In this document: piece after piece, positions 42,777 through 60,987 of the stretch | Position numbering within the stretch: the first letter of the stretch is position 1 | Layout of the letters: every line of letters starts with the position of its first letter | The notes under the pieces: generated by a model | Seen by the model: the letters and a program-made list of their open reading frames with translations, nothing else | The model's database searches: none | Told to the model about the DNA's origin: nothing | DNA from: Acidimicrobiia bacterium | Lineage (GTDB): Bacteria > Actinomycetota > Acidimicrobiia > Spongiisociales > JAHEDJ01 | DNA length: 61,365 nt | NCBI GenBank assembly: GCA_029210695.1 | Contig: JARGFH010000020.1 | Location: forward strand, 1 to 61,365 | Direction of reading: 5' to 3' | Translations under genes and position numbers: made by a program

Positions 42777-42812
42777 CGGTCCGGAGTCCCAACTTCAAGG
42801 GCCGTTGGACCC
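42777..42812. promoter_or_regulatory. Tandem DosR/DevR-like operator boxes
   Basis: CGGTCCGGAGTCCC (42777-90) and GGGCCGTTGGACCC (42799-812), 22 bp apart; TACGGT -10 at 42836. Confidence 0.55.
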
Positions 42813-42891
42813 TGTACCGCCGTGACCTGTGGCAATACGGTGAGGGGCGGAGAGGAACAACTCAACTACATCGGGAGCCGCTGTGGCAGGA

Positions 42892-43365
42892 ATGAGCCGT
42901 CGGACGTTTTTGAGTCGCGCCACCGCCTCGATCGTCGGTGGGATCGGCGCCCTGATGGGAATACCGACCGTCGCCTACCTCATTTCTCCCGCCAAAGCTC
43001 GCGGTGGTCTCGGCGTCGAGGCAATCCCACTCGGACCGATCAGCAAAGTCCCCATCGGGGAACCCACCCTCTTCAAAGCAACCATTGAGCGCAAGACCGG
43101 GTGGGTCACACAAGCCGAGGAGCTGGCCTTCTACGTCTCCACCGACGACGGCCGCAACTTCACGGCCATGTCCAACGTCTGTACACACCTGGGATGCCGG
43201 GTGCGTTGGGTCGACGACGAGGAGGAGTTCTTCTGTCCGTGCCACAACGCCGTCTTCTCGAAGACGGGCACCGTTGTGTCAGGTCCACCTCCCAGGGCTC
43301 TCGACCAATACGAGCTTTCCGTTGAGGACGGCCAGCTCTTCGTTGTGGGAAAGATCGAAGCATGA
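42892..43365 (+). CDS. qcrA: Rieske iron-sulfur subunit of quinol:cytochrome c reductase (complex 1)
   Basis: Tat signal SRRTFL, CTHLGC...CPCHNAVF, GPPPRAL. Confidence 0.92.
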   Translation: MSRRTFLSRATASIVGGIGALMGIPTVAYLISPAKARGGLGVEAIPLGPISKVPIGEPTLFKATIERKTGWVTQAEELAFYVSTDDGRNFTAMSNVCTHLGCRVRWVDDEEEFFCPCHNAVFSKTGTVVSGPPPRALDQYELSVEDGQLFVVGKIEA

Positions 43366-44054
43366 TCGAGAAGGTCAGCGCCTGGTTCGAGGAGCGGATG
43401 GGATGGAAGCCGATATGGAAGGCGCTGGCCCTCCGCAATATCCCCAAGGTCAACTGGTTGTACACGCTGGGTAGCGCCACGCTCCTGGTCACGGTGAACC
43501 AGATTCTGACCGGCATCCTTCTCACCATCTACTACGTGCCGAGTCCGCAGGATGCCTACAACAGCGTTGCCTTCATAACGAACGAAATCACGGCCGGCTG
43601 GCTCATCAGAGGTCTGCATCACTGGGGGGCCAGCGCCATGGTCGTCCTGGCCGGACTCCACATGCTGCGTGTAGTTTTCCACGGCGCCTACAAGTTCCCC
43701 CGCGAGATCACCTGGTTCACGGGACTCGGCCTCCTCGCCGTCACGATGGCCTTCGGTTTCACCGGGTACCTGCTGCCGTGGGATCAGAAGGCCTACTGGG
43801 CCACGACCGTTGGTACCCGAATGCTGGAGGTCACACCCGTCATCGGCGACTGGCTCCTCCGGATCGCCCGCGGCGGTGAAGAACTGTCGGCGGTGACCCT
43901 GACCCGGTTCTACGGGACTCATGTATGGGTGCTCCCCTCGGTGCTCTTGATACTCCTGGGGATCCATATGTTCCTCGTCGTCCGGATCGGTATCAGCGCA
44001 CCTCCCACTGCTGAAGAGGCGGCTGAAGAGCCCGATGTGGAGGTCGAGGCATGA
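43362..44054 (+). CDS. qcrB: Cytochrome b6-type (split, N-terminal) subunit, complex 1
   Basis: GWLIRGLHHWGAS...LHMLRV, GYLLPWDQKAYWA, FYGTH-x14-H. Confidence 0.92.
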   Translation: MIEKVSAWFEERMGWKPIWKALALRNIPKVNWLYTLGSATLLVTVNQILTGILLTIYYVPSPQDAYNSVAFITNEITAGWLIRGLHHWGASAMVVLAGLHMLRVVFHGAYKFPREITWFTGLGLLAVTMAFGFTGYLLPWDQKAYWATTVGTRMLEVTPVIGDWLLRIARGGEELSAVTLTRFYGTHVWVLPSVLLILLGIHMFLVVRIGISAPPTAEEAAEEPDVEVEA

Positions 44055-46438
44055 AACCGGAGGATCGCGCCGAGTACCTAGAGGAGTACGCCAAGGACAA
44101 GAAGAAAGGGATTCCGTTCTTTCCGGATGCGGTGTTCAAGGACGTCCTGGTTGCCCTCATCGTCCTCATCGTCCTAATCGGTCTCGCCTACTTCGGTGGC
44201 GCGCCCCTGGACGAACGCGCCGACCCATCGGATTCCGAATACACCCCTCGACCCGAGTGGTACTTCCTCTGGCTCTTCCAACTGCTCAAGTATTTCCCCG
44301 GCAACCTCGAGTTCGTCGGCGTCATCCTCCTGCCCGCCCTCGGATTCGCCGTTCTCTTCGCCATGCCGTACCTGGACAGGACCAAGCTCCGACACTTCCG
44401 TAGCCGCAACTGGGTGATGGCATCAACCGGCGTCGCCGTGGTAGCCATGGGGTTTCTCACCGTCCAGTCCATCCGGGAAACCCCGGCACCGGCCGACGTG
44501 ACCGGCGCCATCAACGCCGCCGCTCTCTTCACCGAGAATTGCTCCGTGTGCCACGGCACTTCCATCGATGTCCCGATCGGGATCAATCTGCATGAGACGA
44601 TTGCAGGTGGCCACGAGGGAATGCCCGCCTTCGCGGCCACCCTGTCCACCGACGAAATCGACGCCCTGGCAGGTTTCCTGGTGTCGCCTCAGGGCGGGGC
44701 GATCTTCACCGCCAACTGTGCCGCGTGCCATGATTCGAGTGACCTCGCCGCCGCCAGCCCATTCGAACTCCAGAACGCCCTGAACCTGGGCACGGGCTAT
44801 GCGCCCCACACCGGCCTCGACATCCCCGAATGGTCCGAGTTCCTCTTTGGTCCGGACCGCACCGCGCTCCTCAACTTCCTACTCGCTCCGGACGGGCAGC
44901 GCCTCTATACGCTCTATTGCTCGGAGTGCCACGGAAACTCGATCAGTTGGGACGGCGGGCGAGACGAACTCGAGGCCATCATCCGCCAGGGCGGCAACCA
45001 CCTCGACATGACCCAATGGCGGGACGTCCTGCCGGAAGACCAGATCACCGAACTGGCCCTGTTTGTCTACGAACCATCTGCAGCTCCCCAAGGCGAGCAA
45101 CTGTTTGCACAGCACTGCTCGAGCTGTCACGGTGTTCGCGTGCCGAGCGCTCCCGACATCGAGACCGCCTACAACATCATCGCCGACGGCGCAGAACACC
45201 GCTCGATGCCCCTGTGGGGAGATGTCCTCACAGAGGAACAACTCACCGCACTCACCACCTACACCCTCGAAGCCAGTCGCGGCACCCCGATCCTCATCGG
45301 TCAGCAACTGTTCGGCCGATTGTGTTCGTCCTGCCACGGCGATTTCGGGGAAGGCGGGCCGAACCCCTCGGATCCGGTCAATATCATCGCCCCGATCAGC
45401 ACAGCGTTGTATCTGGAGACTCGCGACGATCTCACGCTGCGGGCGATCATCTCGAGGGGACAACCCGATCAGGGCATGTCGCCGTTCCTCGAGAGCGAGG
45501 GCGGACCGCTCACCGAGGACGAGGTCGAAGCCCTGGTGGCCTTCCTCCGTTCGTGGCAGGCAGACCCACCGGTAGAGTTCCCGCCGGATCTCGTCCGCGG
45601 GCCGGTCGCAGGAGGGAGTACACAGGTGTACACCGCTTTCTGCGCTCAATGCCACGGCATGGACGGTGCGGGCGGACCGGGCTTGGTCGGACCCTCATTG
45701 GTCTCGGCAGACTTCCAGGATTCCTTCACGGATGAGCAACTCCACGAGGCCATCGACCTCGGCCATGCTGCCACTTCTATGATCGCCTGGGGCGAGGTCC
45801 TCACCGCCGATCAGATCCAGGGACTCGTCGACCACATCCGCTCGCTGGGCGGACGCGGAGCGATTGAGACGATCGTCTACGCACGCGACATTGCACCGAT
45901 ATTCCAGGCATCGTGCGCCGGTTGTCACGGAACGTCCGGAGGGTGGGATGCCGCCACCATGGAGTCGGTCATCGAGAGCGGGGACAGCGGTGCGGCCGTC
46001 GTGCCCGGCGATCCCGACGGGAGTATCCTGATGCAGCGCCTCCTCGGCGAGGGTAACTTGATGCCACCCGGCGGAGCGCTGCCGGATGCCCAGATCACAT
46101 TGATCGAACAGTGGATCGCCGGAGGAGCAACCACCGAGGTGACGGTCGGCGACGAACAGGCAACCGGCGACTACACCTGGACGAAGGATGTGCTCCCGAT
46201 TCTGCAGGCCAGTTGTGCTTCGTGCCACGGGTCAGCCGGCGGGTGGGACGCATCCACCTACAGCTCAACGATCAACAGCGGAAGAAGCGGCCCGGCCGTG
46301 GTACCGGGCGATGCCGATAAGAGCACGATGATCCAGCGACTGCTTCGCAATGGCGCCCTCATGCCGCCGGGGACTCCCCTGCCCGAAGAACAGATCGCCA
46401 TCCTGATCTACTGGGTAAACAGTGGAGCCAAGGAGTAG
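44051..46438 (+). CDS. Cytochrome b subunit IV (PEWY) fused to eight c-type cytochrome domains
   Basis: PFFPD...PRPEWYF, 3 TMs, then CSVCH, CAACH, CSECH, CSSCH, CSSCH, CAQCH, CAGCH, CASCH; the last two are Planctomycete-cytochrome-like (VVPGD...MPP...WI). Confidence 0.9.
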   Translation: MKPEDRAEYLEEYAKDKKKGIPFFPDAVFKDVLVALIVLIVLIGLAYFGGAPLDERADPSDSEYTPRPEWYFLWLFQLLKYFPGNLEFVGVILLPALGFAVLFAMPYLDRTKLRHFRSRNWVMASTGVAVVAMGFLTVQSIRETPAPADVTGAINAAALFTENCSVCHGTSIDVPIGINLHETIAGGHEGMPAFAATLSTDEIDALAGFLVSPQGGAIFTANCAACHDSSDLAAASPFELQNALNLGTGYAPHTGLDIPEWSEFLFGPDRTALLNFLLAPDGQRLYTLYCSECHGNSISWDGGRDELEAIIRQGGNHLDMTQWRDVLPEDQITELALFVYEPSAAPQGEQLFAQHCSSCHGVRVPSAPDIETAYNIIADGAEHRSMPLWGDVLTEEQLTALTTYTLEASRGTPILIGQQLFGRLCSSCHGDFGEGGPNPSDPVNIIAPISTALYLETRDDLTLRAIISRGQPDQGMSPFLESEGGPLTEDEVEALVAFLRSWQADPPVEFPPDLVRGPVAGGSTQVYTAFCAQCHGMDGAGGPGLVGPSLVSADFQDSFTDEQLHEAIDLGHAATSMIAWGEVLTADQIQGLVDHIRSLGGRGAIETIVYARDIAPIFQASCAGCHGTSGGWDAATMESVIESGDSGAAVVPGDPDGSILMQRLLGEGNLMPPGGALPDAQITLIEQWIAGGATTEVTVGDEQATGDYTWTKDVLPILQASCASCHGSAGGWDASTYSSTINSGRSGPAVVPGDADKSTMIQRLLRNGALMPPGTPLPEEQIAILIYWVNSGAKE

Positions 46439-46442
46439 AAGA

Positions 46443-46580
46443 GGTTCTGGAAAAAAAGAGGTTCTGGGTTCTAGGTTTTAGGTTCTGGTTCTCGAGGGCT
46501 GGGCATTGGGTATCTCACGCTGCTGAGGTTGGGGAGCCAATTGCCAATTGCCAGTTGTCCAATTGCCGATCGCCAGCCAC
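46443..46580. repeat. Degenerate heptamer tandem tracts
   Basis: ggttctg ggttcta ggtttta ggttct; gccaatt gccaatt gccagtt gtccaatt gccgatc. Confidence 0.6.
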
Positions 46581-46628
46581 ACGGAGCACAGGAACTGGCG
46601 ATACCTCGATGGCCCGTCTTCGGGAATC

Positions 46629-46681
46629 TGACACTTTGACCCAAAGTACGAGCCGTTCGGCCCGGGGCGAATAAACGTCCC
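46629..46681. promoter_or_regulatory. Cluster of DosR/DevR-like boxes
   Basis: TGACACTTTGACCC (46629), GAGCCGTTCGGCCC (46650; 21 bp spacing), CGAATAAACGTCCC (46668). Confidence 0.5.
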
Positions 46682-46765
46682 GTCGGGTCGGTTTGCTACT
46701 CTCCTTCGCACCCCGGCCGCGTGCGGGGACTGGCGCAGTAGGGTGTCGACGACGGAGCATCTGGT

Positions 46766-48562
46766 ATGGAGAAACTTCATTTCTTCGACGAGAACATCCC
46801 CTGTCTCGCCGCCTGTCCTGTCAACACGAATGCCGGCATGTACGTCGCCGCCATCGCAGACGGACAGGATGAACTGGCCTACCTGACTGCTCGCCTCCCC
46901 AATCCGTTTGCGTCCGTCTGCGGACGGGTTTGTGCGGCTCCCTGCGAGGACGCTTGTCGCCGCGGCGAAATCGACAAGCCCATTGCCATTCGGGCACTCA
47001 AGCGGTTCGTCACCGATCAATTCGGTGTGGAAGCGGGCATGGACACCTACAAGCAGGTCGCCGCTCCCCCACTCGAGTCGCGACCACAGAGCGTCGGTAT
47101 CGTCGGAGGGGGCCCGGCCGGCCTGGCTGCCGCCCACGACCTCCGCCGTCTCGGCTACGCCGTCACCCTGTATGAAGCCACCGGGCAACTCGGCGGCATG
47201 ATGCTGCTCGGGATCCCCGAGTACCGCCTGGATCGATCCCTTCTGGCGGCGGAGATCAAAGCCATCACCGATCTGGGTGTTGAGGTGCGTTTGAACACGA
47301 AACTCGGCGAAGGCATCACACTCGACGACGCCCGCCGACGCCACGATGCGGTATTCGTGGCTATTGGGGCGACCCTGGGGCGCGGCCTCGACCTCGAAGG
47401 CCACGACGCAGACGGGGTCTTGAAGGCGATCGAGTATCTCATCAACGCCAACCAGGGTTTTGCTACCGAGGTCGGCCAGAAGGTCGTCGTGATCGGTGGC
47501 GGCGACGTGGCGATGGATGCCGCCAGGACCGCCCTGCGAGCTGCAACATACGATGAGATTGCCCGCCGCCACGCTGAATACGACGAAGAGGACGGGCGCT
47601 CTTCAATGACCGAAGCCCTCGACGTTGCCCGAACGGCTGCGCGGACGGGCGCCCAGGACATCACCATCATGTCCCTGGAGGCCAAACACGAAATGCCGGC
47701 CTCGGAGTTCGAGGTCGAAGAAGCGGAGCACGAGGACATCAAGTTCGTCAACCGCCGCGGCCCCGCCCGGATCCTCACCGCAGATGGCAAGGTCACCGGC
47801 ATAGAGACGATCGGGGTCACGCGCGTATTCGACGAGAACGGCCGCTTCTCTCCTGAATTCGATGACGCCGATCGAGTGACGCTAGAGGCCGACACAATCA
47901 TCATGGCGATCGGCCAGGCCATCGACGTTGAGGCGCTGGGGGCGAATGGTCCGGAGCTCAGTCCTCGCAAGACCATCCAGGTGGGTGACGACAGCCTGGC
48001 GACTTCACTTCCGATGGTATGGGCCGGTGGCGACGCGGCCAGAGGCCCGCGCACCCTCATCGACGCGATAGCAGACGGCCGGATCGCGGCCCGTGAGATC
48101 CACGAGGCATTCGGTGGCAGCTTCGCCGAGCAAGATGCCGGAACCATGGTGCAGCTTGACCAATTCCACCGTCTCGACGACGTCTACGACCGGGTCCCCC
48201 GGGTCGCCGTACCCACGCTGCCGACCGACCGGCGCATCGGTCTGGCAGAAGTCGAAACAGGGTTCACCATCGAAGAGGCCAGGTGTGAGGCACAGAGGTG
48301 TCTGCGCTGCTTCGCCAACATCCTCCTCGACACGGACATCTGTGTGCTGTGCGCGCTGTGCGCCGACGTCTGCCCGCTCGACCTGATCTCGCTGGTGCCT
48401 TCTGAGGACATTCACCCGGACGAGGCGGGTGGCACGGCATTAATGTTGAACGAGCAGAGCTGCATCCGCTGCGCGCTGTGCATAGAGCGATGCCCGACGG
48501 ATGCGTTGTCGATGGGGCTATGGACCGGAGTGGGAGTGCCGACCTTGGGAGCACGGGTATGA
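46766..48562 (+). CDS. FAD/Fe-S oxidoreductase of the GltD/NfnB/DsrL family with C-terminal 2x[4Fe-4S] ferredoxin
   Basis: PCLAACP...CGRVCAAPCEDAC, GGGPAG, GIPEYRL, GGGDVAMD, AGGD, RCLRC, CVLCALCADVCP, CIRCALCIERCP. Confidence 0.9.
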   Translation: MEKLHFFDENIPCLAACPVNTNAGMYVAAIADGQDELAYLTARLPNPFASVCGRVCAAPCEDACRRGEIDKPIAIRALKRFVTDQFGVEAGMDTYKQVAAPPLESRPQSVGIVGGGPAGLAAAHDLRRLGYAVTLYEATGQLGGMMLLGIPEYRLDRSLLAAEIKAITDLGVEVRLNTKLGEGITLDDARRRHDAVFVAIGATLGRGLDLEGHDADGVLKAIEYLINANQGFATEVGQKVVVIGGGDVAMDAARTALRAATYDEIARRHAEYDEEDGRSSMTEALDVARTAARTGAQDITIMSLEAKHEMPASEFEVEEAEHEDIKFVNRRGPARILTADGKVTGIETIGVTRVFDENGRFSPEFDDADRVTLEADTIIMAIGQAIDVEALGANGPELSPRKTIQVGDDSLATSLPMVWAGGDAARGPRTLIDAIADGRIAAREIHEAFGGSFAEQDAGTMVQLDQFHRLDDVYDRVPRVAVPTLPTDRRIGLAEVETGFTIEEARCEAQRCLRCFANILLDTDICVLCALCADVCPLDLISLVPSEDIHPDEAGGTALMLNEQSCIRCALCIERCPTDALSMGLWTGVGVPTLGARV

Positions 48563-49296
48563 CGTTGGGACAACGAATCCGCGAGAGCATCATTGGTCGT
48601 TCGATCTGGCGTGCCACCGACCGAACCACTGAACGCGATCAGGCGGCCGGACACTGGGCGAACTTCTTCCTGCACATCTATCCGGTGAAGGTGCGCCGAA
48701 AGGAGATCACGTTCCGCTACTCCTGGTATCTCGGTGTGGCGTCGCTGGTCCTGTTCGGATCTCTTCTAGTGTCGGGCATCTACCTGATGTTCTTCTACGT
48801 CCCGTCGCCTGCCCAGGCCTACGGCGACATCCTCAACCTGCAGACCCGGGTGGCTTTCGGCCAGTACATCCGTAACGTCCACCGCTGGTCGGCTCACCTC
48901 ATGGTGCTGGTCGTCGCCGCGCACATGGCAAGGGTGTTTTACCGGGGCGCCTACAAGAAACCGCGTGAATTCAACTGGGGTGTCGGCGTCATCCTCCTCG
49001 TGCTCACGCTGCTCCTTTCCTTCACCGGCTACCTGCTCCCCTGGGACCAGCTCGCCTACTGGGCTGTCACGGTCGGCACCGAGATGGCCGCCTTCGTCCC
49101 GCTGATCGGAGACACCGTCAAGGAGATGATGCTGGGTGGGCCGGTAGTTGCATCGTCGACGCTGCTGCGGTTCTACGTTCTGCATGTCGCCGTGCTACCC
49201 ACGGCCGTCGTCCTCCTCATCACGATCCATTTGTGGAGATGGCGCAAAGACAGCATGCTCGACGCGGCGAAGGAGGGTGTTGATGTCGACGCCTAG
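48559..49296 (+). CDS. Cytochrome b6-type (split, N-terminal) subunit, complex 2
   Basis: FFLHIYP, RNVHRWSAH...HMARVF, GYLLPWDQLAYWA, FYVLH-x14-H; ATGA-coupled to the flavoprotein. Confidence 0.92.
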   Translation: MTLGQRIRESIIGRSIWRATDRTTERDQAAGHWANFFLHIYPVKVRRKEITFRYSWYLGVASLVLFGSLLVSGIYLMFFYVPSPAQAYGDILNLQTRVAFGQYIRNVHRWSAHLMVLVVAAHMARVFYRGAYKKPREFNWGVGVILLVLTLLLSFTGYLLPWDQLAYWAVTVGTEMAAFVPLIGDTVKEMMLGGPVVASSTLLRFYVLHVAVLPTAVVLLITIHLWRWRKDSMLDAAKEGVDVDA

Positions 49297-49819
49297 ACCC
49301 GATCAGGAGAATCCTGAGATCATCGCCGGACAACGGGTGCTCGGGGTTGTTCCCGGCAAGCCACCCGGCGGCGACCGCAAGGTTCTGAGCGAGCAGGAGC
49401 CGGTCATGGTCTGGCCGCATCTGCTCGTCCGCCACGCCGTGGCGGCGCTGGTGGTCATCGCCGTCGTTCTGGTTCTCGCCATCTTCTTCGATGCCCCGCT
49501 ACGTGAGATCGCCAACCCCACACTGACGCCGAACCCGGAGAAAGCCCCCTGGTATTTCGCGGCGCTCCAGGAACTGCTGGCGTTGTTCCACCCGCTGGTG
49601 GCCGGTGTGCTGGTTCCGGGCGCCATCGTCCTCGGGCTCTTCGCGCTTCCATACGTCGACAGGACTTCTACGATCGAGCCACGTTTCCGCAAGGTGGCGG
49701 TGGCGACCTTCACGATCTTCATGGTCGTGTGGATAATCCTGACGATTATCGGATTCGCCTTCCGCGGCCCCAACTGGGGTTGGGTGTGGCCCTGGCAAGA
49801 GTGGTACGGAGAGTTATGA
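49283..49819 (+). CDS. Cytochrome b subunit IV-like, complex 2 (APWY variant)
   Basis: VWPHLL, DAPLREIANP, PNPEKAPWYF..LQELL, LPYVD, FRGPNW. Confidence 0.88.
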   Translation: MSTPRPDQENPEIIAGQRVLGVVPGKPPGGDRKVLSEQEPVMVWPHLLVRHAVAALVVIAVVLVLAIFFDAPLREIANPTLTPNPEKAPWYFAALQELLALFHPLVAGVLVPGAIVLGLFALPYVDRTSTIEPRFRKVAVATFTIFMVVWIILTIIGFAFRGPNWGWVWPWQEWYGEL

Positions 49820-50322
49820 GCAACGGAATCGGTCGGAGAGAATTCCTGTCCAGGGCCTGGAAGTGGGGAGCGGCCCTCATCGGCGTCGCCGGGGGCTGGA
49901 CCACCTGGGACATCCTGCAGCCCCGGATCACCGGAGGGTTCGGTGGGATCATCAAGACAAAGGCAGCCGACACGGTGCCGGACGCCACCGTCGAATCCAT
50001 CCGCGCCGCCAGAACCTACCTCACCAGGATCGACGGTGAGGTCGTAGCCCTCTCCGAGAAGTGTCCGCACCTCGGTTGCCGGGTGCCGTGGTGCGATTCG
50101 TCCGGACAATTCGAGTGCCCGTGCCACGGATCGGTCTTCAACCGGGCGGGCGAGTACCGCTCAGGACCGACCCCGCGCGGAATGGACCGCTACGAGTTCG
50201 AGACGATCGACGGCATCGTCTACGTCGACACCGGAACACTGATATCCGGACCGGCGATCGGTGTGGAGACCCTCAACGAACCCGTACGAGGGCCATCGTG
50301 TGAGGACAGCTCGCATGGGTGA
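49816..50322 (+). CDS. Rieske iron-sulfur subunit, complex 2
   Basis: Tat GRREFL, CPHLGC...CPCHGSVF, GPTPRGMD. Confidence 0.92.
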   Translation: MSNGIGRREFLSRAWKWGAALIGVAGGWTTWDILQPRITGGFGGIIKTKAADTVPDATVESIRAARTYLTRIDGEVVALSEKCPHLGCRVPWCDSSGQFECPCHGSVFNRAGEYRSGPTPRGMDRYEFETIDGIVYVDTGTLISGPAIGVETLNEPVRGPSCEDSSHG

Positions 50323-50779: not shown

Positions 50780-51186
50780 TCGCGAGTTCCTAGTCGCGAG
50801 TTACTAGTCGCCCCCTCACGCGTTTCTCCCCCGCTGAAGCTCGCGACACGCGACCCTCTCTCCGTGAGGGGAGAACACGTCAACCCAAACCCGCGACCCC
50901 CAACGCGTTTCTCCCCCGCCGAAACGGGGGAGATGCCGAATCCACGAGGCAGAGGGGCCACCCGCCACACGCGACCCGCGACCCGCTCGAGGCAGAAGGG
51001 CACTCGCGACGCACAGCCCCCCTCCCCTCCAGTCGCTCCGCTCCCTCCAGGACTCCCCCCACTCCGTGAGGAGAGAACACATCAAACGACCCGCCACCCC
51101 CCAATGGGCACTCGCGACACGCGACCCGCGACTCGCGACCCTCTCGAGGCAGAGGGGGCCACCCGCGACCCGCGACCCGCGACTCG
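50778..51186. repeat. Mosaic of REP-like hairpins and (g/a)cgcgac heptamers between convergent operons
   Basis: tctcccccg-ccgaaa-cgggggaga (50910-33); tccgtgaggRgagaacacRtcaa at 50861 and 51063; repeated gaggcaga(g/a)ggg; cgcgacc/cgcgact runs. Confidence 0.75.
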
Positions 51187-54042: not shown

Positions 54043-56082
54043 ATGAACGCGACCCTCGGATATCTCTCGATCCTCGCCGCAGTGGTGGGAGCGCTCGGTA
54101 TCACCGTGCGGGGTTTCATCGCCATGCGAGATCCGGAGCGGGCGAACAAGGGGTATCTGGGGTTGCCCGTCATCCTGTTCTTGTCCGGAGCCGTCGGCGC
54201 AATATTCTTCCTGGAACTCGGGCTCCTCACCGACGACTTCTCGATCAAGTACATCGCCAACAACTCGTCATCCACCACCCCGTTTCTCTTCAAGTTCGCT
54301 TCGGGATGGGCATCCCTGGAGGGATCGATCGTGTTGTGGGGCCTGGTTCTGGCCGGCTTCACATTCGCCGTGTACGCGCGGTTCTTCCGTAGCCAAACCG
54401 GCGACCGGCTCGCAGCCGGTGCTCTGGCGATCATGGGTCTCATCTCCCTCTACTTCTTCGGGCTGATGGCCACGATCTCCGACCCCTTCGCCCGCTGCGT
54501 ACAAACGTTCAGCGACGGGGTCGGTTGCGTGACCGGCGAGAACGCGATTCTCGCCAACGTGATCTCCTCCCCGATCGAAGGGCGCGGTGCCAACGCACTG
54601 CTCCAGAACCACTGGCTCATGGCGCTGCATCCCCCAACGCTCTACGTCGGCTATGTCGGGCTGAGCGTCCCCTTTGCGTTTGCCATCTCGGCGCTCATCC
54701 TTCGGACGACCGGGGCGGACTGGCTGACCCGGACCCGTAATTGGACGGTGTTCGCCTGGATGTTCCTCACCGCCGGCATCGTGCTCGGTGGGCTCTGGTC
54801 GTATGAAGTGCTCGGCTGGGGCGGTTACTGGGCGTGGGATCCGGTTGAGAATGCCTCCTTCATGCCGTGGCTGGTAGCGACGGCCTTCTTGCACTCGTCG
54901 GTCGTACAGGCCAGGCGCGGGATGCTGCAATCGTGGAACTTCGTCCTCGTGATCACCACCTTCGCCCTCACGATTCTCGGTACCTTCTTGACCCGCTCCG
55001 GAGTGATCGTCTCGGTCCACAGCTTCTCTCAATCCGCCATCGGGCCGGCCCTGTTGATCTTCCTGGTGGTCGTGCTGCTGGGATCGCTCGGGCTCTTCGC
55101 CACCCGCGCCCACACCATCGCCTCTTCGCCCCGGCTCGATTCGCTCAGCAGCCGGGAAGGGGTGTTCTTGTTCAACAACCTTCTCCTGACGGTGTTCGCG
55201 TTCATGGTGCTGACCGGGACGCTCTACCCGCTCTTCGTCGAGGCGTTCTCCAACTCGACGGTGGGCGTCGGACGTCCATTCTTCGATCGCATGGCGATCC
55301 CGCTGTCCTTCCTCTTGTTGCTGGCGATGGGGATCGGACCGGTCTCGCCCTACCGGGCGGCGAGTGCCCGAGTCGTCTGGGAGCGGATTCGCTGGCCTTT
55401 CCGGGTGGCCCTCGGTGCCGCGGCGCTGGCCGTCGTGTTCGGCTACGGGAATTCGTTCCTGCTGCTCGGTGTCCTGACCGCGGTATTCGTCATGGGTGTG
55501 ATCATCCACAACCTCTACAACTCGGCCGGGATCCGGGCAGGCAAGCTCGGCATTGGACGGAGACAGGCTGCCGTACGGATCATGCGTGGCGACCCGCACT
55601 ACTGGGGCGGGCAGATCTCCCACCTGGGTGTCGCAATCCTGGCGCTGGGCATCGCCTTCTCTGCGAATTTGTCGGAGACGGCCACGATTTCTATCGACGC
55701 CGGCGACACCGTCAACTTCGCCGGATTCGAGGTGACCTATGAGGAGGCGTTCAGCCGGCAGGAACCCGGCCGGTTTGTCACCGGTGCAGACATCACCGTG
55801 ACCCGGGAGGGGTCGGTCGTCGGCAAGTACCAGCCACGCCTCAACCAGTACGGGAACACCCGCGAGTCCATCGCCACCCCGGAGGTCGACACAATGTTCA
55901 CCGGCGATCTCTACCTCTCACTCCGCAGTATCGATCCTTCCACCGTGGTCCTCGAGGTCTACTGGTTCCCGTTCATCTGGTTGATCTGGGTGGGTGGGTT
56001 CCTGGCGGCTGCGGCCGGAGTCTGGGGATTCGCAGTCAAGAAGCCCGAGCGGTCGATCGTGCCGGACGACACCCGTGTCTGA
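54043..56082 (+). CDS. ccmF: Heme lyase CcmF
   Basis: WASLEGS, LLQNH.LMALHPP.LY.GY, WSYEVLGWGGYWAWDPVENAS, TRSG..SVHSF. Confidence 0.96.
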   Translation: MNATLGYLSILAAVVGALGITVRGFIAMRDPERANKGYLGLPVILFLSGAVGAIFFLELGLLTDDFSIKYIANNSSSTTPFLFKFASGWASLEGSIVLWGLVLAGFTFAVYARFFRSQTGDRLAAGALAIMGLISLYFFGLMATISDPFARCVQTFSDGVGCVTGENAILANVISSPIEGRGANALLQNHWLMALHPPTLYVGYVGLSVPFAFAISALILRTTGADWLTRTRNWTVFAWMFLTAGIVLGGLWSYEVLGWGGYWAWDPVENASFMPWLVATAFLHSSVVQARRGMLQSWNFVLVITTFALTILGTFLTRSGVIVSVHSFSQSAIGPALLIFLVVVLLGSLGLFATRAHTIASSPRLDSLSSREGVFLFNNLLLTVFAFMVLTGTLYPLFVEAFSNSTVGVGRPFFDRMAIPLSFLLLLAMGIGPVSPYRAASARVVWERIRWPFRVALGAAALAVVFGYGNSFLLLGVLTAVFVMGVIIHNLYNSAGIRAGKLGIGRRQAAVRIMRGDPHYWGGQISHLGVAILALGIAFSANLSETATISIDAGDTVNFAGFEVTYEEAFSRQEPGRFVTGADITVTREGSVVGKYQPRLNQYGNTRESIATPEVDTMFTGDLYLSLRSIDPSTVVLEVYWFPFIWLIWVGGFLAAAAGVWGFAVKKPERSIVPDDTRV

Positions 56083-56488
56083 TTCGATCCGCAAAATCGT
56101 GGCGGCCGTGGTGACCATCGGCCTGGCGGTCGTTGTCGTGGTCGGTCTCGTCCAGGGCGACCGTACGGATGAAGATCGAGCCCGGTCTATCGGCAGTCGG
56201 GTCAAGTGCCCGGTCTGCCAGGGCGTCGCTATCGCCGATTCACCGTCCGAAACTGCCAGGGCGATGATGGACGTCGTCGAAGAGCGAATCGCAGACGGGT
56301 GGTCCGACCGGCAGATCATCGACTACTTCTCCGAGCGGTACACCGACAGCATCGTCATCGACCCACCGTTCTCCGGGAACACTCTGCTCGTCTGGCTGCT
56401 CCCGATCCTGGCAGTAGTCGCAGGCTTCTTCATGATCTTCTCCCGGCGCAAGACGCCGGTGCCAAAAACCGATGAGGTGAAACAGTGA
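56075..56488 (+). CDS. ccmH: Cytochrome c biogenesis protein CcmH/CcmL
   Basis: VKCPVCQGVAIADS, YFSERY, LVWLLP. Confidence 0.9.
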   Translation: MSDSIRKIVAAVVTIGLAVVVVVGLVQGDRTDEDRARSIGSRVKCPVCQGVAIADSPSETARAMMDVVEERIADGWSDRQIIDYFSERYTDSIVIDPPFSGNTLLVWLLPILAVVAGFFMIFSRRKTPVPKTDEVKQ

Positions 56489-57330
56489 GCAACTTCAACC
56501 AGGAGTCGTACGACCGAGCCGCCGCCCGCAAGGAACTCGCCCTGACCGATCTCGAAGAACTGGCCCAGCAGGTGGAAGACGGTGAGATCGACGCAGCCAC
56601 CGCGGCAGGACTCCGGAGCGGCTACGAGGCTGAACTTGGCGCGGCCGAGGCCGAACTGGCCACACTCGGCCCACCGCCAGCCCGCAAGAAGTCGCCCGCC
56701 TCGGCTCAGGCGCCGGGTTCGACCAAACGAGCTCCGAGCGAGACGGGGCAGCCTGCCGGGAAATCGAGCGACCTCAATACGCGCCTGCTGGTCGGCGCCG
56801 GAATTCTCATCGTCGCCCTCGTCGTGATTCTCATCTCGGTGCAGAATTCGGCACAGCCGGATCCGGCCGCGGTGGGCACCCAGGTGACAACCGCAAGCGG
56901 CGAGGGCCCCTGCGCGGAACTGGCCGGCGCGTTGACCAATCACTCCGACAACGGCTTTCGTCTGGCGCTGGCCGATTGCTACGCAGACGTCGGAGACGCC
57001 ATGTCGGCGATCGAGCATTACCGGGCCGTCGCCGAGGCCGAAGGCGCCACCGACGGCGAGGTAGCCCGGGCCAACGTGGGACTCGGTTTTCTCAACCTCC
57101 AAATCGGAGAGCTCACCAAGGCTGCCGACTACATGCGCCTGGCACTCGAGCGCGACGCCGCCAATATCGAAGCTCAGTACTTCCTGGGCATGATGCTGGT
57201 CTACGACCTCGGCGACCCGGCCGCAGGGGCCCCCTACTTGGAATCGGTACTCGCCACGCCCGATTTGCCGGAGACCGTGGTTCTCGAAATCCAGGCGGCG
57301 CTCGACGTCGCAGCGGGCGAAGGCTCATGA
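56485..57330 (+). CDS. ccmI: CcmI/CycH-like TPR protein
   Basis: LEELAQQVEDGEID, one TM, C-terminal TPR-like helices; position in the ccm operon. Confidence 0.65.
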   Translation: MSNFNQESYDRAAARKELALTDLEELAQQVEDGEIDAATAAGLRSGYEAELGAAEAELATLGPPPARKKSPASAQAPGSTKRAPSETGQPAGKSSDLNTRLLVGAGILIVALVVILISVQNSAQPDPAAVGTQVTTASGEGPCAELAGALTNHSDNGFRLALADCYADVGDAMSAIEHYRAVAEAEGATDGEVARANVGLGFLNLQIGELTKAADYMRLALERDAANIEAQYFLGMMLVYDLGDPAAGAPYLESVLATPDLPETVVLEIQAALDVAAGEGS

Positions 57331-57929
57331 CCGATACCGACCTCGCCGTCGAGCCGACCCCGGACGCTCAGCAACGCAATCTCAAACTGTGGATAACCAC
57401 CGGCATCGCGGCAGTTGCGTTCATCGCGCTGGCGCTCGTGTTCAACAGCCGGTTCGGCGTTGACCCCCGGGTCGTCGAATCCCCGCTCATCGGGAAACCC
57501 GCCCCGAACGTCGAACTTGAGGTTCTCGAGCAGGACGCCATCTCCGGCCCCATGTCCATCTCGGAACTTCGCGGCAGTGTGGTTGTCGTCAACTTCTTTG
57601 CCTCGTGGTGCATCCCCGCCTGTCGCGACGAGCACCCCCATCTCACTGCGGCCGCCGCCGACTACGCCGACCGGGGCGCGCGATTCATTGGAATAGCCAC
57701 CAGCGACGCGCCGGACGACACTCGCAGGTTCCTGGACGCGCTCGGGTGGGGAACCAACTACACCTATCTCAACGACCCCGATGCCAGGGCCGGGGTCGAG
57801 TTCGGCACGTTCGGAGTTCCGGAGACGTTCGTGATCGACCGGGAGGGGCTCGTCACGCACAAATTCACAGGCCCGGTCACATACGATGAACTGGTGGTCG
57901 AGTTGGAGAAGGCGTTGGCGGGCTCATGA
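57327..57929 (+). CDS. ccmG: TlpA/DsbE/CcmG thiol-disulfide oxidoreductase
   Basis: SPLIGKPAP, VVNFFASWCIPACRDE, GVPETFVID. Confidence 0.85.
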   Translation: MTDTDLAVEPTPDAQQRNLKLWITTGIAAVAFIALALVFNSRFGVDPRVVESPLIGKPAPNVELEVLEQDAISGPMSISELRGSVVVVNFFASWCIPACRDEHPHLTAAAADYADRGARFIGIATSDAPDDTRRFLDALGWGTNYTYLNDPDARAGVEFGTFGVPETFVIDREGLVTHKFTGPVTYDELVVELEKALAGS

Positions 57930-58038: not shown

Positions 58039-58731
58039 ATGCAGAGAACAAACGAGCTGACACGCACGGTCCTGCGACTGGCCTGGTTGACTCTTTTGAC
58101 TCTCGCATGGGTGTTGTGGACGAGTCAGGCGGCCGCCCACGCCCAGGAACTCCCCGGACGAGATGATCCGTTCTGGAAGACCGACACCTGCCTCGGCTGC
58201 CATCAGCAGTCGGACTTGTCCGTGAAACTGCCATCCGACGAGACGCTGCGACTGGTCGTATATAGAGGCGAGTACGAAGATTCAGTGCATGGTCGAACAG
58301 GAGTGGCCTGCCGCAACTGTCATCTTGACATCACCGGTGTCCCTCACCCTGATCTCACCGCCGGAAGCCTGGTCGAGTTCTCAGAACAGCAAGCCAGCTC
58401 CTGCGAGATGTGTCACCGGGATCACTACGGCAAAGTGGCAGACGAACTGCATGAGGAGTCTGGTGGTTTGTTGTGCTTCGAGTGTCATGATCCGCACACA
58501 ACCGGCAGCACTGACTCGGTATCGACTGAGGTTCAAGCTTCCTGCAACGCATGCCACTCCGGGAGTATCGAGATTCCTGCACAGGGGATTCACGCCGCGG
58601 CCGAGGTCCCGGTCCCGGAGACCACGAGCGGTGTCACGATCCTGCTCATTCTCGGCGGGATCTTTGTCGGTTTCGTCGTCCTCGTCTGGTTGGCGACGGT
58701 GGCCTGGCGCGTTGTGCGCGATCGAAGCTGA
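58039..58731 (+). CDS. Pentaheme c-type cytochrome with signal peptide and C-terminal membrane anchor
   Basis: CLGCH, CRNCH, CEMCH, CFECH, CNACH; AHA-Q cleavage; C-terminal TM. Confidence 0.9.
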   Translation: MQRTNELTRTVLRLAWLTLLTLAWVLWTSQAAAHAQELPGRDDPFWKTDTCLGCHQQSDLSVKLPSDETLRLVVYRGEYEDSVHGRTGVACRNCHLDITGVPHPDLTAGSLVEFSEQQASSCEMCHRDHYGKVADELHEESGGLLCFECHDPHTTGSTDSVSTEVQASCNACHSGSIEIPAQGIHAAAEVPVPETTSGVTILLILGGIFVGFVVLVWLATVAWRVVRDRS

Positions 58732-58791
58732 TCCGGCTCGGTCCCCTACGTTGCCTTGTAGCAATTCCCAAGCTCGTGCGCCCTTTCACAT

Positions 58792-58805
58792 GGGTCGAAT
58801 GACCC
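58792..58805. promoter_or_regulatory. Palindromic DosR/DevR-like box
   Basis: GGGTC-GAAT-GACCC; weaker boxes at 58732 and 58770. Confidence 0.55.
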
Positions 58806-58872
58806 TACGCGATTTGCGCGCGGATCCGTCATTATGTCGGTACACGAGTCGAGTAGCTCCCGGGGAGGAAGC

Positions 58873-60987
58873 ATGAGTCGATTTCGACACACACGCCTGG
58901 TTGTGCTTGTCGCCCTGCTGATGGTCTTGGCGGCCTGCACGAGCAGCGCCGACGACACCACCACCACTACGGGTGCGGAAGGGGCAACACCAACCACAGC
59001 TCCGCCGGCCGGCGAGCCGGTGGAATCCGAGCTCGTGGTTCCGTTCCTGGCCGCCTGGGTCGGATCTGGTCACAACAACGACACGGCTGAAGCGTTCGTG
59101 CACTGGAACGAGGACGACCCCCAGCTCATTCCGACCAGTTGCGCGAAGTGCCACAGCACCCCCGGTCACCTCGACTTCCTCGGAGCAGACGGCAGCCCGT
59201 TCGGCAGCGTTGAAGCCGACGCGGCGATCGGGACCACAATCCAATGCGAGGCGTGCCACAACGATGTCACGATTTCTCTGGACAGCGTCGTGATGCCGTC
59301 GGGCCTCGAGCTCACCGGCCTCGGCGACGAATCCCGTTGCATGAACTGCCACCAGGGCCGTGAGTCCAAGATCAGCGTGGACGCTTCGATCACCGAAGCG
59401 GGCGTCGAAGAGGACACCGTCTCCGAAGACCTGGGTTTCCGAAACATCCACTACTTCGCGGCCGCCGCCACCAAATACGGCACCGAAGCCAAGGGTGGTT
59501 ATGAGTACGAGGGCAAGACCTACGATGCGTTCTTCGTCCACGTCGAGGGATACTCGACCTGTATTCAGTGCCACGATCCCCACACGCTGGAACTGAAGAT
59601 CGCCGAATGCTCGACGTGCCACACCGGTGTCGCCACGATCGAGGATCTCCGCGATGTCCGCATGCCGGGATCACTCGTCGACTTCGACGGAGACGGCGAC
59701 CTCGAAGAGGGCATCTACTACGAACTCGAGGGCGTGCGGGAGCTGCTGCTTCAGGCCATTGAGGCCTACGCCTCCGAGGTGGCGGGAACCGGCATCACCT
59801 ACGACGCCAATGCCTACCCGTACTTCTTCGATGAGGCCGGCGAGCGATTCGCCGCCTGGACCCCGCGCCTCCTCAAAGCCGCGTACAACTATCAGGTTTC
59901 CCTCAAGGACCCGGGAGCGTTCGCCCACGGCGGCAAGTACATCCTGGAGTTGATGTACGACTCGATCGAGAACCTCAACGAAGCCATCTCGTCGCCCATC
60001 GACATGACGGCGATGCACCGCATCGACCACGGGCACTTCGCCGGGTCTGAGGAAGCCTTCCGACACTGGGACGAGGACGGCGCAGTGCCTGCATCTTGTT
60101 CGCGCTGCCACTCCACGGAGGGCCTGCCGCTGTACCTGCAGGAAGGCGTGACGATCACCCAGCCGACTTCCAACGGGTTCAACTGCTCGACGTGCCACGA
60201 CAGCACGAGCGAGTGGACCCGGTATGAAGTGCTCGACGTCACCTTCCCGAGCGGAGCAACAGTCGACAGCGGCGACGCCAACACCAACCTCTGCATGAGC
60301 TGCCATCAGGGCCGTGAGTCTGGTTCCAGCGTTGATCGCCGAATCGGCGACACGGGGCCCGACTCGGTCAGCGACGCACTGGGATTTGTCAACGTGCACT
60401 ACCTGCCGGCGGGTGCCACCCTTTTCGGTAGCGAAGCTGCGGGTGGCTACCAGTACGCCGGACAGACGTATGCCGGAGCCAACGACCACCCGATCGCCAC
60501 GTGCACGGGTTGCCACAGTTCCCACACGCTCCAGGTTCAGGTTGAGGCCTGCGGAGGTTGCCATCAGGGGACGAACTCCGAAGAGGACCTGAAGGACATC
60601 CGGATCACTGCCGGCGACTTCGATGGTGACGGCGACGAGGCCGAGGGCATCGCCGATGAAATCACCACGATGCGCGAAGCGCTGCTGACGGCGATGCAGG
60701 CGTATGCCTCCTCGACAGAGGGCCTTCAGCCGATCGTGTACGACGCCCACGCCTATCCGTACTTCTTTACCGACCTCAACGGTGACGGAAGCGCAAGCCC
60801 CGACGAGGCGAACTTCGGCAACCAGTACGCCACCTGGACGCCGCGCCTGCTTAGGGCTGCCTACAACTACCAGTACGCAACGAAGGACCCGGGCGGCTTC
60901 GCCCACAACCCGGCCTACGTGCTCGAGTTGCTATACGACTCACTGGCGGACATCGGCGCCGACGTGACGGGATTGACCAGGCCGTAG
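58873..60987 (+). CDS. Decaheme c-type cytochrome lipoprotein (2 x pentaheme internal repeat; OmcB-like polyheme)
   Basis: GGAGG RBS, lipobox LAAC, Thr-rich linker; CAKCH, CEACH, CMNCH, CIQCH, CSTCH / CSRCH, CSTCH, CMSCH, CTGCH, CGGCH. Confidence 0.92.
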   Translation: MSRFRHTRLVVLVALLMVLAACTSSADDTTTTTGAEGATPTTAPPAGEPVESELVVPFLAAWVGSGHNNDTAEAFVHWNEDDPQLIPTSCAKCHSTPGHLDFLGADGSPFGSVEADAAIGTTIQCEACHNDVTISLDSVVMPSGLELTGLGDESRCMNCHQGRESKISVDASITEAGVEEDTVSEDLGFRNIHYFAAAATKYGTEAKGGYEYEGKTYDAFFVHVEGYSTCIQCHDPHTLELKIAECSTCHTGVATIEDLRDVRMPGSLVDFDGDGDLEEGIYYELEGVRELLLQAIEAYASEVAGTGITYDANAYPYFFDEAGERFAAWTPRLLKAAYNYQVSLKDPGAFAHGGKYILELMYDSIENLNEAISSPIDMTAMHRIDHGHFAGSEEAFRHWDEDGAVPASCSRCHSTEGLPLYLQEGVTITQPTSNGFNCSTCHDSTSEWTRYEVLDVTFPSGATVDSGDANTNLCMSCHQGRESGSSVDRRIGDTGPDSVSDALGFVNVHYLPAGATLFGSEAAGGYQYAGQTYAGANDHPIATCTGCHSSHTLQVQVEACGGCHQGTNSEEDLKDIRITAGDFDGDGDEAEGIADEITTMREALLTAMQAYASSTEGLQPIVYDAHAYPYFFTDLNGDGSASPDEANFGNQYATWTPRLLRAAYNYQYATKDPGGFAHNPAYVLELLYDSLADIGADVTGLTRP

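Follow-up and report, generated by a model that had tools for sequence, protein, structure and literature searches.

Rieske/cytochrome b complexes with an NAD(P) oxidoreductase subunit have been described in Kuenenia stuttgartiensis (Kustd1480-1485 and Kuste4569-4574; PMC12954380; here and below, published work is quoted from the accessible text of each source). NfnABC and FwdF (5t5i) are the structural templates given for Kuste4570, and AlphaFold3 models of the Kuenenia complexes show His and Arg/Lys residues around an extra haem b (PMC12954380). Among cytochromes b, Kao and Hunte 2014 distinguished two clades, 'PEWY-cyt c' and the uncharacterised 'APWY', in which they placed the split cytochromes b of Rubrobacteridae and of the acidimicrobial Ilumatobacter, and APWY-clade complexes were proposed to run in reverse (PMC4122944). 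Dibrova et al. 2017 described cytochrome b subfamilies G and D, stated that in many lineages short subfamily-G cytochromes b are accompanied by large Fe-S proteins that bind NAD(P), and noted short cytochromes b with a TLGS motif in Rubrobacter and Conexibacter (PMC5600118). Here we analyse a contig of an Acidimicrobiia bacterium (JARGFH010000020.1 of assembly GCA_029210695.1, positions 1 to 61,365, hereafter the window), in which an 18-kb gene cluster joins two split Rieske/cytochrome b operons (R/b-1 and R/b-2), a flavoprotein gene, genes for cytochrome c maturation (Ccm) and two multihaem cytochrome genes.

Extracellular electron transfer (EET) through multihaem cytochromes in a monoderm was reportedly described for Thermincola potens by Carlson in 2012. 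Further monoderm cases are Ardenticatena maritima, whose surface cytochrome is a 7-haem protein (PMC5808234), and Coriobacteriales and Anaerolineales rich in multihaem cytochromes (PMC7399161). In Geobacter sulfurreducens, the extHIJKLMNOPQS/Cbc6 cluster encodes a Rieske protein (ExtO), a short cytochrome b (ExtP) and a subunit IV-like protein (ExtQ; PMC5877670) together with 12-, 10-, 5- and 4-haem cytochromes, one of them a lipoprotein (PMC5877670; bioRxiv 10.1101/2021.04.15.440034). Geobacter also has ImcH (7 haems) and CbcL (a dihaem b with 9 haems), which serve different redox-potential windows, and its use of ImcH, CbcL and CbcBA depends on potential (bioRxiv 10.1101/2021.04.15.440034). 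None of the papers that literature searches returned for such a cluster in Acidimicrobiia, PMC12175321 among them, describes it, as far as listings and abstracts show.

An earlier note on this DNA, written by a model that saw only the letters and a list of open reading frames (ORFs), had read the cluster as a self-contained, low-oxygen-induced conduit from NAD(P)H/ferredoxin and menaquinol to surface multihaems. We revisited that reading with domain searches and with comparisons of gene order across relatives.

Results

The window is the whole contig C94 (61,365 bp), one of 181 contigs in a genome of 3.9 Mb with a completeness of 97.85%; genomes, contigs and loci carry the prefixes G, C and L. 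Genes were taken from ORF calling guided by third-codon-position GC (GC3) and from Pfam, and their order was read across 42.8-61.0 kb. Gene content, operon structure, conservation and co-location could be read directly from these data. The gene cluster is real, far beyond chance. Its 24 CxxCH motifs, the exact number the earlier note had given, fall as 8+1+5+10 in the subunit IV fusion of R/b-1, the monohaem c of R/b-2, the pentahaem and the decahaem, compared with 1 CxxCH in the 11,655 aa of the window's 32 other ORFs. Pfam likewise bears out the inventory of two split Rieske/cytochrome b operons, an NfnB-like flavoprotein, ccm genes, a pentahaem and a decahaem, and agrees that no enzyme-type terminal reductase is encoded between 42777 and 60987. 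Eight long opposite-strand or alternative (shadow) ORFs match no Pfam family, and an Rfam scan of 41000-61365 gave zero RNA families.

We consider it probable that these 18 kb are a genus-specific juxtaposition of four modules: R/b-2, R/b-1, the Ccm genes and the first genes of a multihaem cluster. R/b-2 consists of five genes in the order flavoprotein, short cytochrome b, subunit IV, Rieske protein (Rieske2) and monohaem c; stop and start overlap at all four junctions, and the flavoprotein gene leads the operon in translational coupling. Of the 61 genomes of our order sample, 25, this one included, have a full-length flavoprotein orthologue (64-97% identity), a tally that contains the unpublished genomes G010 and G021. 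Seventeen loci of the order were examined, 16 of them with downstream DNA, and in all 16 the cytochrome b, subunit IV, Rieske and monohaem c genes directly follow the flavoprotein gene. R/b-1 lies upstream of it in 5/5 same-genus loci with upstream DNA and at L066, and in 0/12 loci from six other families; none of these 12 five-gene loci has a multihaem or ccm gene next to it. Beyond the order, 79 loci came from a profile scan of species-representative genomes. In all 15 Acidobacteriota and Ca. Kryptoniota loci with downstream DNA, Rieske, cytochrome b and subunit IV genes directly follow a full-length flavoprotein gene (40-45% identical), and two further loci, titled Acidimicrobiia or Actinomycetota, keep the R/b-2 gene order of this window. 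Four of the 79 loci end at the flavoprotein gene, and the 58 that remain (NfnB/GltD-like, at most 38% identity) have no Rieske or cytochrome b neighbours.

This survey bears on the idea that all parts form one conduit, in which the flavoprotein would pass electrons from NAD(P)H or ferredoxin, and both complexes electrons from menaquinol, to surface multihaems at low oxygen. All parts are contiguous in 6/6 same-genus genomes, the flavoprotein module is present in 14 of the 16 genomes with R/b-1, and Geobacter offers a precedent in which a cytochrome b of the same clade (ExtP) stands with multihaems and an outer-membrane conduit (PMC5877670). However, the flavoprotein and R/b-2 stand apart from multihaem and ccm genes in 12/12 other-family and 15 other-phyla loci, 11 of the 25 flavoprotein genomes lack R/b-1, a 327-bp spacer separates the two operons, for which no common upstream motif was found, and the decahaem of G025 occurs with its own quinol dehydrogenases and without R/b-1. 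Because the supporting genomes are closely related and the modules lose their linkage beyond the genus, we give this idea only a slim chance. The expected co-conservation of the components as one unit is confined to the genus, and the flavoprotein, previously seen as a shared input to the surface conduit, belongs to R/b-2: only Rieske and cytochrome b genes accompany it in the 15 other-phyla loci, and no multihaem or ccm genes adjoin it in the 12 of other families.

The R/b-2 flavoprotein is predicted to be cytoplasmic, with an N-terminal 2-cluster domain and a C-terminal polyferredoxin-like domain. Its best matches among PDB sequences are the NfnB-like part of NfnABC (9bov/9bp5, 2.8e-88), followed by NfnB and GltD; residues 515-585 match FwdF best (5t5i_F, 8.5e-19). 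All 16 cluster-binding cysteines are kept in 13 orthologues. The cytochrome b (cyt b2) carries His39 in an N-terminal extension and W-R-x-R-K-D (R227/R229/K230) near the C-terminus, both invariant in 21/21 aligned flavoprotein-linked cytochromes b, none of which has the haem-cn cysteine (W, A or F occupies its position). Subunit IV carries KAPWYF, the Qo motif of the APWY clade, and Rieske2 has a Tat (twin-arginine translocation)-type N-terminus and the Ser donor in box II. Among PDB sequences Rieske2 matches Kuenenia Kustd1480 (9rk3, 1e-14), then 9rk4 (9.1e-13) and the b6f Rieske protein 8hn2 (1e-12). The monohaem c begins with a hydrophobic helix. With a short cytochrome b, subunit IV, Rieske protein and NfnB/GltD-like Fe-S subunit in one operon, R/b-2 has the composition of the anammox-type NAD(P)-linked complexes except for a hexa- or octahaem c subunit; the octahaem of this locus sits in the R/b-1 operon. 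On this evidence from motifs, architecture and model scores, on which all clade assignments here rest, R/b-2 is an added member of the noted but uncharacterised APWY, 'subfamily G' or anammox-type class.

In other families the flavoprotein gene is preceded by a small, translationally coupled gene, whose product is either a two-helix anchor carrying a monohaem c or just the anchor. This gene is absent from the flavoprotein operon of this genus; a homologue lies elsewhere in this genome on C115, beside another oxidase. The two-helix C-terminal membrane module, which ends in VQD...G.W...LR.LQ, was seen at L044:4303-4989, L050 (reverse) 62-961 and L065:863-1684, fused to a monohaem cytochrome c (upstream of the flavoprotein operon elsewhere), to a NarI-like cytochrome b and to the cytochrome c by the C115 oxidase, and may have a docking or anchor role.

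R/b-1 differs from R/b-2 in sequence and in architecture. Its genes overlap stop to start at every junction (ATGA between Rieske1 and cyt b1). Rieske1 has a Tat-type N-terminus, lacks the Ser/Tyr hydrogen-bond donors in box II and has the b6f Rieske protein as its best PDB sequence match (8hn2, 1.5e-18). Cyt b1 reads TLGS where the haem-cn motif CxGG would stand. Subunit IV is a PetD-like fusion of 795 aa with the Qo motif PEWY at residue 68 and an octahaem tail of eight CxxCH, in which seven of the eight class-I domains contain the Met-containing motif; PEWY and the fused class-I c domains place R/b-1 in the PEWY-cyt c type. The two complexes, which had been called twins, are distant paralogues: cyt b1 and cyt b2 are 45% identical and Rieske1 and Rieske2 36%, and the Qo motifs are PEWY and APWY.

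The fusion of subunit IV to a multihaem tail is present in 16/61 order relatives and in 6/251 genomes of a class-wide sample; among the metagenome proteins scored, 1,589 belong to its family at E <=1e-10. Forms of ~700 aa with 52-55% identity include proteins named from Anaerolineales, and the one ~700-aa orthologue counted, in G013, has 7 CxxCH. A single in-frame stop was flagged within the fusion match in each of six relatives (TGA at G011:C9 and G040:C17, TAG at G037:C23, G031:C94 and G027:C62, TAA at G005:C16); these may be read-through gene boundaries, assembly errors or recoding. Outside the genus the neighbours of R/b-1 recur. In G011 and G022 it abuts a 6h-11h-Rrf2-10h-8h-TPR-NHL block (h, haems per cytochrome), in G016 and G037 its immediate neighbours are ccmFHIG and a decahaem-like gene of half length, and in G013 it shares 19 kb with ImcH-like (NapC-like), cytochrome b/2-haem, 9-haem and decahaem genes. 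Nine of the 11 genomes with the decahaem also contain R/b-1. Across three or four families, R/b-1 shares its neighbourhood with Ccm genes, the decahaem and quinol dehydrogenases of the ImcH-like and CbcL-like kinds, and this co-location suggests that it belongs functionally with the multihaem set.

A shared operator had been proposed before each unit, yet no 9- or 10-mer with at most one mismatch is common to the five upstream regions, and the 10 shared 8-mers lie within the range of 100 shuffles (mean 6.5, maximum 24); induction by low oxygen is likewise unsupported, as no motif was found. Within the spacer at 46439-46765 the 3' ~120 bp is conserved in the genus. This block upstream of the flavoprotein gene is coding DNA in other families. 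The second spacer varies in length within the genus (407 bp here, 130 bp in G001 and 557 bp in G004), and short 7- to 15-bp tandem repeats fill 46459-46575 and 50775-51187.

The Ccm genes encode a System I. CcmA, B, C, E, F and H and a thioredoxin-like CcmG (by AhpC-TSA/Redoxin) pass the Pfam cut-offs, so that most of the set named ccmABCDE and ccmF-H-I-G by the earlier note stands; CcmD is only a candidate, without a Pfam family match but with 78-95% identity to its counterparts at that position in three same-genus genomes, and the 'CcmI' TPR protein stays below the cut-offs, although its position next to CcmH and CcmG is conserved in other families. The CcmA start at 53772 was chosen by orthologue alignment, the longest ORF extending to 54006. 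System I had been taken as unusual for the lineage, but CcmE occurs in 229 of the 251 class-sample genomes (a tally that includes G283) and the System II protein ResB in 12, of which nine are strong matches confined to three families. System I is therefore the class norm and, as ResB was not found in this genome, the sole maturation system found here, and the locus serves all c-type cytochromes of the cell, including the cytochrome c domain of caa3 oxidase subunit II.

Only the decahaem has the lipobox expected of the two supposed lipoproteins, followed by a Thr-rich linker and two five-haem halves; the pentahaem has a signal peptide, no lipobox and a C-terminal membrane helix (hydrophobic segment 192-210). 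In an alignment of 31 decahaem sequences, ten CxxCH and 12 further His are invariant or, for the latter, nearly so, and neither CxxCK nor another catalytic-type motif was seen. As these His would suffice for bis-His ligation of all ten haems, the protein looks like a wire and not like an enzyme. A profile search against PDB sequences returned no relative (chance hits only, E >=0.55), and scores stay below the cut-offs of the MtrC/OmcA model TIGR03507 (27.3 against 209.3 bits) and of Pfam MtrC-MtrF_II-IV (23.1 against 30 bits). The family is nevertheless large, with 5,142 proteins at E <=1e-5 among those scored; relatives at 60-66% identity include proteins named from Promineifilaceae and Ardenticatenaceae (Chloroflexota names) and from Ca. 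Abyssubacteria, and the ESM Atlas offers only unnamed or 'cytochrome c3 family' clusters. The accessible text on the 7-haem surface cytochrome of Ardenticatena maritima gave no link between that protein and the decahaem family. Within our samples the decahaem occurs in 11/61 relatives and 5/251 class-sample genomes, and an 11-haem protein in 3/251.

The cluster is not self-contained: the contig ends 378 bp beyond the decahaem gene, the sequence continues in G001 of the same genus, and homologous DNA lies on C170 of this genome. After the decahaem, G001 encodes an AbiEi-like protein, 6-haem and 11-haem cytochromes, an Rrf2 regulator, more 10-haem-class cytochromes, TPR and NHL proteins, and a 9-haem cytochrome with an FdnI/cytochrome b561-like protein bearing two c haems. 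C170 holds the same genes in reverse order (87-91% DNA identity to G001). These are followed by the gene for a NapC/NirT-like protein with three helices, 6 CxxCH and 1 CxxxxCH, and then by haem biosynthesis genes. An ISL3 transposase lies inside the multihaem block of C170 in this genome alone (L063:8780-10060), a weak Mutator-transposase-like ORF stands at the end of C170, and the AbiEi-like gene of G001 (L059:2933-4048) is at the same junction; the contig break is probably due to such mobile or defence-type genes interrupting the cluster. In G002 and G004 the 9-haem, cytochrome b/2-haem and NapC-like genes directly follow the decahaem gene and precede haem biosynthesis genes. The decahaem also lies within a few kb of NapC/ImcH-like and cytochrome b/2-haem genes in G022, G011 and G025, the last of which has no R/b-1 by the fusion query and carries ccmFHIG beside the decahaem's quinol dehydrogenase genes. 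The conserved neighbours of the decahaem are these dedicated ImcH-like and CbcL-like quinol dehydrogenases, encoded beyond the 18 kb of the earlier note and so called by haem counts, helices and Pfam domains. The genome as a whole has at least 16 ORFs with three or more CxxCH, contrary to the premise of few multihaems.

The same genes can be read without any EET, as ordinary respiration or detoxification of soluble substrates (N- and S-oxyanions, selenite, or O2 through caa3), with the proximity of ccm and haem biosynthesis genes reflecting shared cofactor supply. Genes for Ccm and for haem biosynthesis do flank the cluster, the genome also encodes a caa3 oxidase and, elsewhere, a NarG-like enzyme, and the Geobacter relative of the cytochrome b clade is named for selenite/tellurite reduction. 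We rejected selenite reduction as deduced from the ExtP match because the model is generic for the clade and gives all three short cytochromes b of this genome 225-305 bits. The wire-like decahaem, with enough His for bis-His ligation and no catalytic-type motif, the lack of a catalytic reductase gene in the cluster, and the company of a Thr-linker lipoprotein with NHL, TPR, ImcH-like and CbcL-like proteins, which is usual for EET clusters, make this alternative quite unlikely.

Other respiratory genes of the genome place the cluster in context. An operon 40 kb upstream of the cluster (378-4303) encodes a caa3-type oxidase in the order subunit II (with a fused cytochrome c domain), I, III and IV; this oxidase could plausibly serve the bc complexes as a high-potential electron sink. 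A third Rieske/cytochrome b operon, on C109, encodes cytochrome b, a 565-aa subunit IV, a Rieske protein and a dihaem c; its cytochrome b has the haem-cn motif CLGG and is 52% identical to cyt b2. Since the dihaem c is present in 50/61 relatives (G010 and G021 again included), this is the order's common bc complex, and R/b-1 and R/b-2 are accessory. The premise of a single bcc complex with fused cytochrome b thus fails here, and split cytochromes b had already been reported for Acidimicrobiia and Rubrobacteria (PMC4122944). The C109 subunit IV (L064:5481-7178) has an Ala/Pro-rich, internally repeated N-terminal extension of ~390 residues, with unknown bases inside, and a gene just downstream of the operon looks Rex-like by eye from its N-terminus. 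A fourth cytochrome b, a 743-aa fusion on C115 (L065:4480-6711) directly after haem-copper oxidase-like genes, has the unusual architecture cytochrome b, 2x[4Fe-4S], FlpD/MvhD-like domain and class-I cytochrome c. The NarG-like gene is on C126. No Omp85/BamA was found in the genome, which fits a monoderm cell type.

The system could also run inward: surface multihaems would take electrons from Fe(II), Mn(II), reduced humics or a cathode, the high-potential octahaem tail would pass them to caa3 and, uphill, through R/b-1 running in reverse, and R/b-2 or its flavoprotein would make NAD(P)H. Eight class-I tail haems, seven with Met motifs, would suit a high-potential carrier between multihaems and oxidase, the oxidase lies in the window, and reverse operation is what was proposed for APWY-clade complexes (PMC4122944). 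However, it is the PEWY complex R/b-1 and not the APWY complex that is co-located with multihaems, the ImcH and CbcL modules are outward quinol oxidases in Geobacter (bioRxiv 10.1101/2021.04.15.440034), and no RuBisCO large subunit was found in this 97.85%-complete genome, so that autotrophy by the Calvin-Benson-Bassham cycle is unlikely. We regard inward transfer as unlikely on balance.

In all same-genus loci the gene before R/b-1, next to the cluster (Table 1), encodes a ParA/CpaE-like ATPase (41735-42769 in the window); directly upstream of that gene is a 20-bp tandem repeat (41583-41739, 7.8 copies, 95% matches). The only obvious signalling gene of the window, a response regulator with GGDEF and HD-GYP-type domains (19167-20750, minus strand), is not adjacent to the cluster.

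Table 1 Coordinates of cluster features in the window
Feature	Position	Strand	Evidence
Rieske1 of R/b-1	42883..43365	+	Pfam Rieske 7.6e-12
Short b6-like cytochrome b of R/b-1	43362..44054	+	Pfam Cytochrome_B 8.7e-50
Subunit IV with eight class-I cytochrome c domains	44051..46438	+	Cytochrom_B_C, 7 Cytochrome_CBB3 stretches, PSCyt1
Spacer between Rieske/cytochrome b operons, 327 bp	46439..46765	.	7-bp tandem repeats
NfnB/GltD-like FAD/NAD(P) flavoprotein, 598 aa	46766..48562	+	Pfam Fer4_20 + Pyr_redox_2 + C-terminal 2x[4Fe-4S]
Short cytochrome b of R/b-2	48559..49296	+	Pfam
Subunit IV of R/b-2, APWY	49283..49819	+	Cytochrom_B_C 1.6e-11 on longer ORF
Rieske2 of R/b-2	49816..50322	+	Pfam
Membrane-anchored monohaem class-I cytochrome c of R/b-2	50315..50779	+	Cytochrome_CBB3/Cytochrom_C, 1 CxxCH
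Repeat-rich spacer, 407 bp	50780..51186	.	7- and 14-bp tandem repeats
CcmE haem chaperone	51187..51609	-	Pfam CcmE 3.4e-26
Candidate CcmD, 37 aa	51611..51724	-	ORF; one hydrophobic helix + basic tail
CcmC	51717..52442	-	Pfam Cytochrom_C_asm 9.5e-26
CcmB	52439..53119	-	Pfam CcmB 4.1e-26
CcmA ABC ATPase	53116..53772	-	Pfam ABC_tran 3.9e-34
CcmF haem lyase	54043..56082	+	Pfam CcmF_C 3e-65 + Cytochrom_C_asm
CcmH, CxxC motif	55994..56488, start uncertain	+	Pfam CcmH 3.3e-28
TPR protein at CcmI position	56485..57330	+	Sub-threshold TPR matches
CcmG-like membrane-anchored thioredoxin, WCxxC	57327..57929	+	Pfam AhpC-TSA/Redoxin; ATGA overlap
Pentahaem cytochrome c	58039..58731	+	5 CxxCH; Pfam Cytochrome_C7, Paired_CXXCH
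Decahaem lipoprotein	58834..60987	+	10 CxxCH
Terminator-like hairpin, small ORF 61127-61342 (no family match), contig end	60988..61365	.	

Discussion

From gene content and conservation we infer the complexes, the direction of electron flow and the acceptors as follows. R/b-2 would oxidise menaquinol at Qo and send one electron through Rieske2, in which the box-II Ser may raise the potential as it does in other Rieske proteins, and the monohaem c to a high-potential sink, probably caa3. The second electron would pass from the b haems along the Fe-S chain, reaching FAD and finally NAD(P)+; alternatively the module may work in reverse, so that NAD(P)H would supply electrons to the b haems and to quinone. 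The cytoplasmic subunit with FAD and Fe-S clusters would most probably bind the cytochrome b dimer from the n-side.

R/b-1, with PEWY and a Rieske protein without Ser/Tyr donors, would oxidise menaquinol and load the eight-haem tail on the outer face. R/b-1 and the ImcH-like and CbcL-like modules could then be three alternative entries from the quinone pool into an extracytoplasmic multihaem network, in which the pentahaem and decahaem would be the products of the first two genes of a larger cluster (6-, 8-, 10- and 11-haem cytochromes, NHL, TPR, Rrf2, CbcL-like, ImcH-like and haem biosynthesis genes). R/b-1 and the multihaem cluster are most likely a branched menaquinol-to-extracytoplasmic transfer system in a monoderm. 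Such a quinol-to-outside path is plausible because the octahaem complex is co-located with multihaems or Ccm genes in other families as well, and we prefer the outward direction, towards insoluble or high-potential acceptors, to an uptake of electrons from outside. The conduit from menaquinol to the surface that the earlier note had drawn survives to this extent, as its multihaems are predicted to be extracytoplasmic and membrane-tethered; the flavoprotein as its shared input does not.

Several observations weigh against this interpretation. Class-I haems with His/Met ligands are expected at higher potential than bis-His multihaems. With such haems in the tail, it is not obvious how electrons would run simply downhill from R/b-1 to the multihaems, and their His/Met character favours inward or oxidase-directed transfer. 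The flavoprotein module is found in 14/16 R/b-1 genomes against 25/61 overall, and a functional link between the two complexes may exist as the earlier note proposed, although the association is weak evidence because the genomes are close kin. The continuation of the cluster from C94 to C170 in this genome is deduced from a sister genome. As for the anammox-type assignment of R/b-2, its cytochrome b and flavoprotein are likened to those of Kuenenia by described features and not by sequence alignment, its c subunit is monohaem and not hexa- or octahaem as in Kuenenia, its cytochrome b, again unlike that of Kuenenia, lacks the haem-cn cysteine, and the preference of Rieske2 for 9rk3 over the b6f protein is small (1e-14 against 1e-12).

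The genus locus might instead be a real redox hub, with three menaquinol oxidases tuned to different potentials, the octahaem tail bridging to the multihaems, and the flavoprotein-bc complex sharing its high-potential outlet to drive NAD(P)+ reduction from quinol. We find this doubtful; if true, one of the three oxidases would be a proton-motive Q-cycle bc complex, with a His/Met tail that bridges the wall zone. Apart from that, an NAD(P)-linked Rieske/cytochrome b complex that bifurcates electrons from quinol to NAD(P)H is a long-standing, untested proposal for anammox, met here in an oxidase-encoding genome of heterotroph type. With its five genes and simple monohaem outlet, this compact operon could be easier to test than the anammox complexes. 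The long-tail bc complex, the ImcH-like and CbcL-like modules and a decahaem of unsolved structure recur across several families of Acidimicrobiia, with close Chloroflexota-named relatives of some parts, a pattern that points to a shared monoderm EET toolkit whose mechanisms are poorly known.

Compared with described systems, the modules are of kinds already noted in the literature and nothing is categorically new; the statement that no characterised system has this combination overlooks the anammox Rieske/cytochrome b complexes (PMC12954380) and Geobacter ext/Cbc6 (PMC5877670). Close relatives of these genes may already be included in the supplementary clade lists of PMC4122944 and PMC5600118. 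R/b-2 resembles the Kuenenia complexes in joining a split b6-like cytochrome b, subunit IV, a Rieske protein and a cytoplasmic NfnB-like FAD/Fe-S subunit in one operon. Its flavoprotein matches the same two templates (NfnABC 9bp5 and FwdF 5t5i), and His39 and the C-terminal basic residues, compared by description, resemble the residues around the modelled extra haem b (PMC12954380). Unlike those complexes, it has no HAO-like partner, and it occurs in a bacterium that possesses an oxidase and does not perform anammox. In R/b-1, TLGS in place of CxGG is shared with Rubrobacter and Conexibacter (PMC5600118), whereas the tail has eight fused c domains against 'a class I cyt c domain' in the PEWY-cyt c clade (PMC4122944).

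Like Geobacter ext/Cbc6, the window joins Rieske/cytochrome b units of this clade to multihaems (PMC5877670). The scores fall short of the family cut-offs of NCBIfam, with 260.5 bits for cyt b2 and 225.5 bits for cyt b1 against 290 for ExtP, and 58.4 bits for subunit IV against 150 for ExtQ. Unlike the Geobacter cluster, this one belongs to a monoderm and has no porin, rhodanese or selenoprotein; it does have a flavoprotein, of which there is none among the ext gene products listed in the accessible text. The likeness to ImcH and CbcL (bioRxiv 10.1101/2021.04.15.440034) lies in a 3-helix NapC/NirT protein with 6+1 haems and in a 9-haem protein with an FdnI/cytochrome b561-like partner, on C170 and contiguous in G001, G002 and G004; it is a likeness of domains only, and the CbcL-like module is split into two genes, with two extra c haems on the cytochrome b. 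Monoderm EET pathways, as far as the accessible text of PMC5808234 and PMC7399161 describes them, do not include a Rieske/cytochrome b complex; what this locus has in common with those organisms is membrane- or lipid-anchored multihaem cytochromes without a porin.

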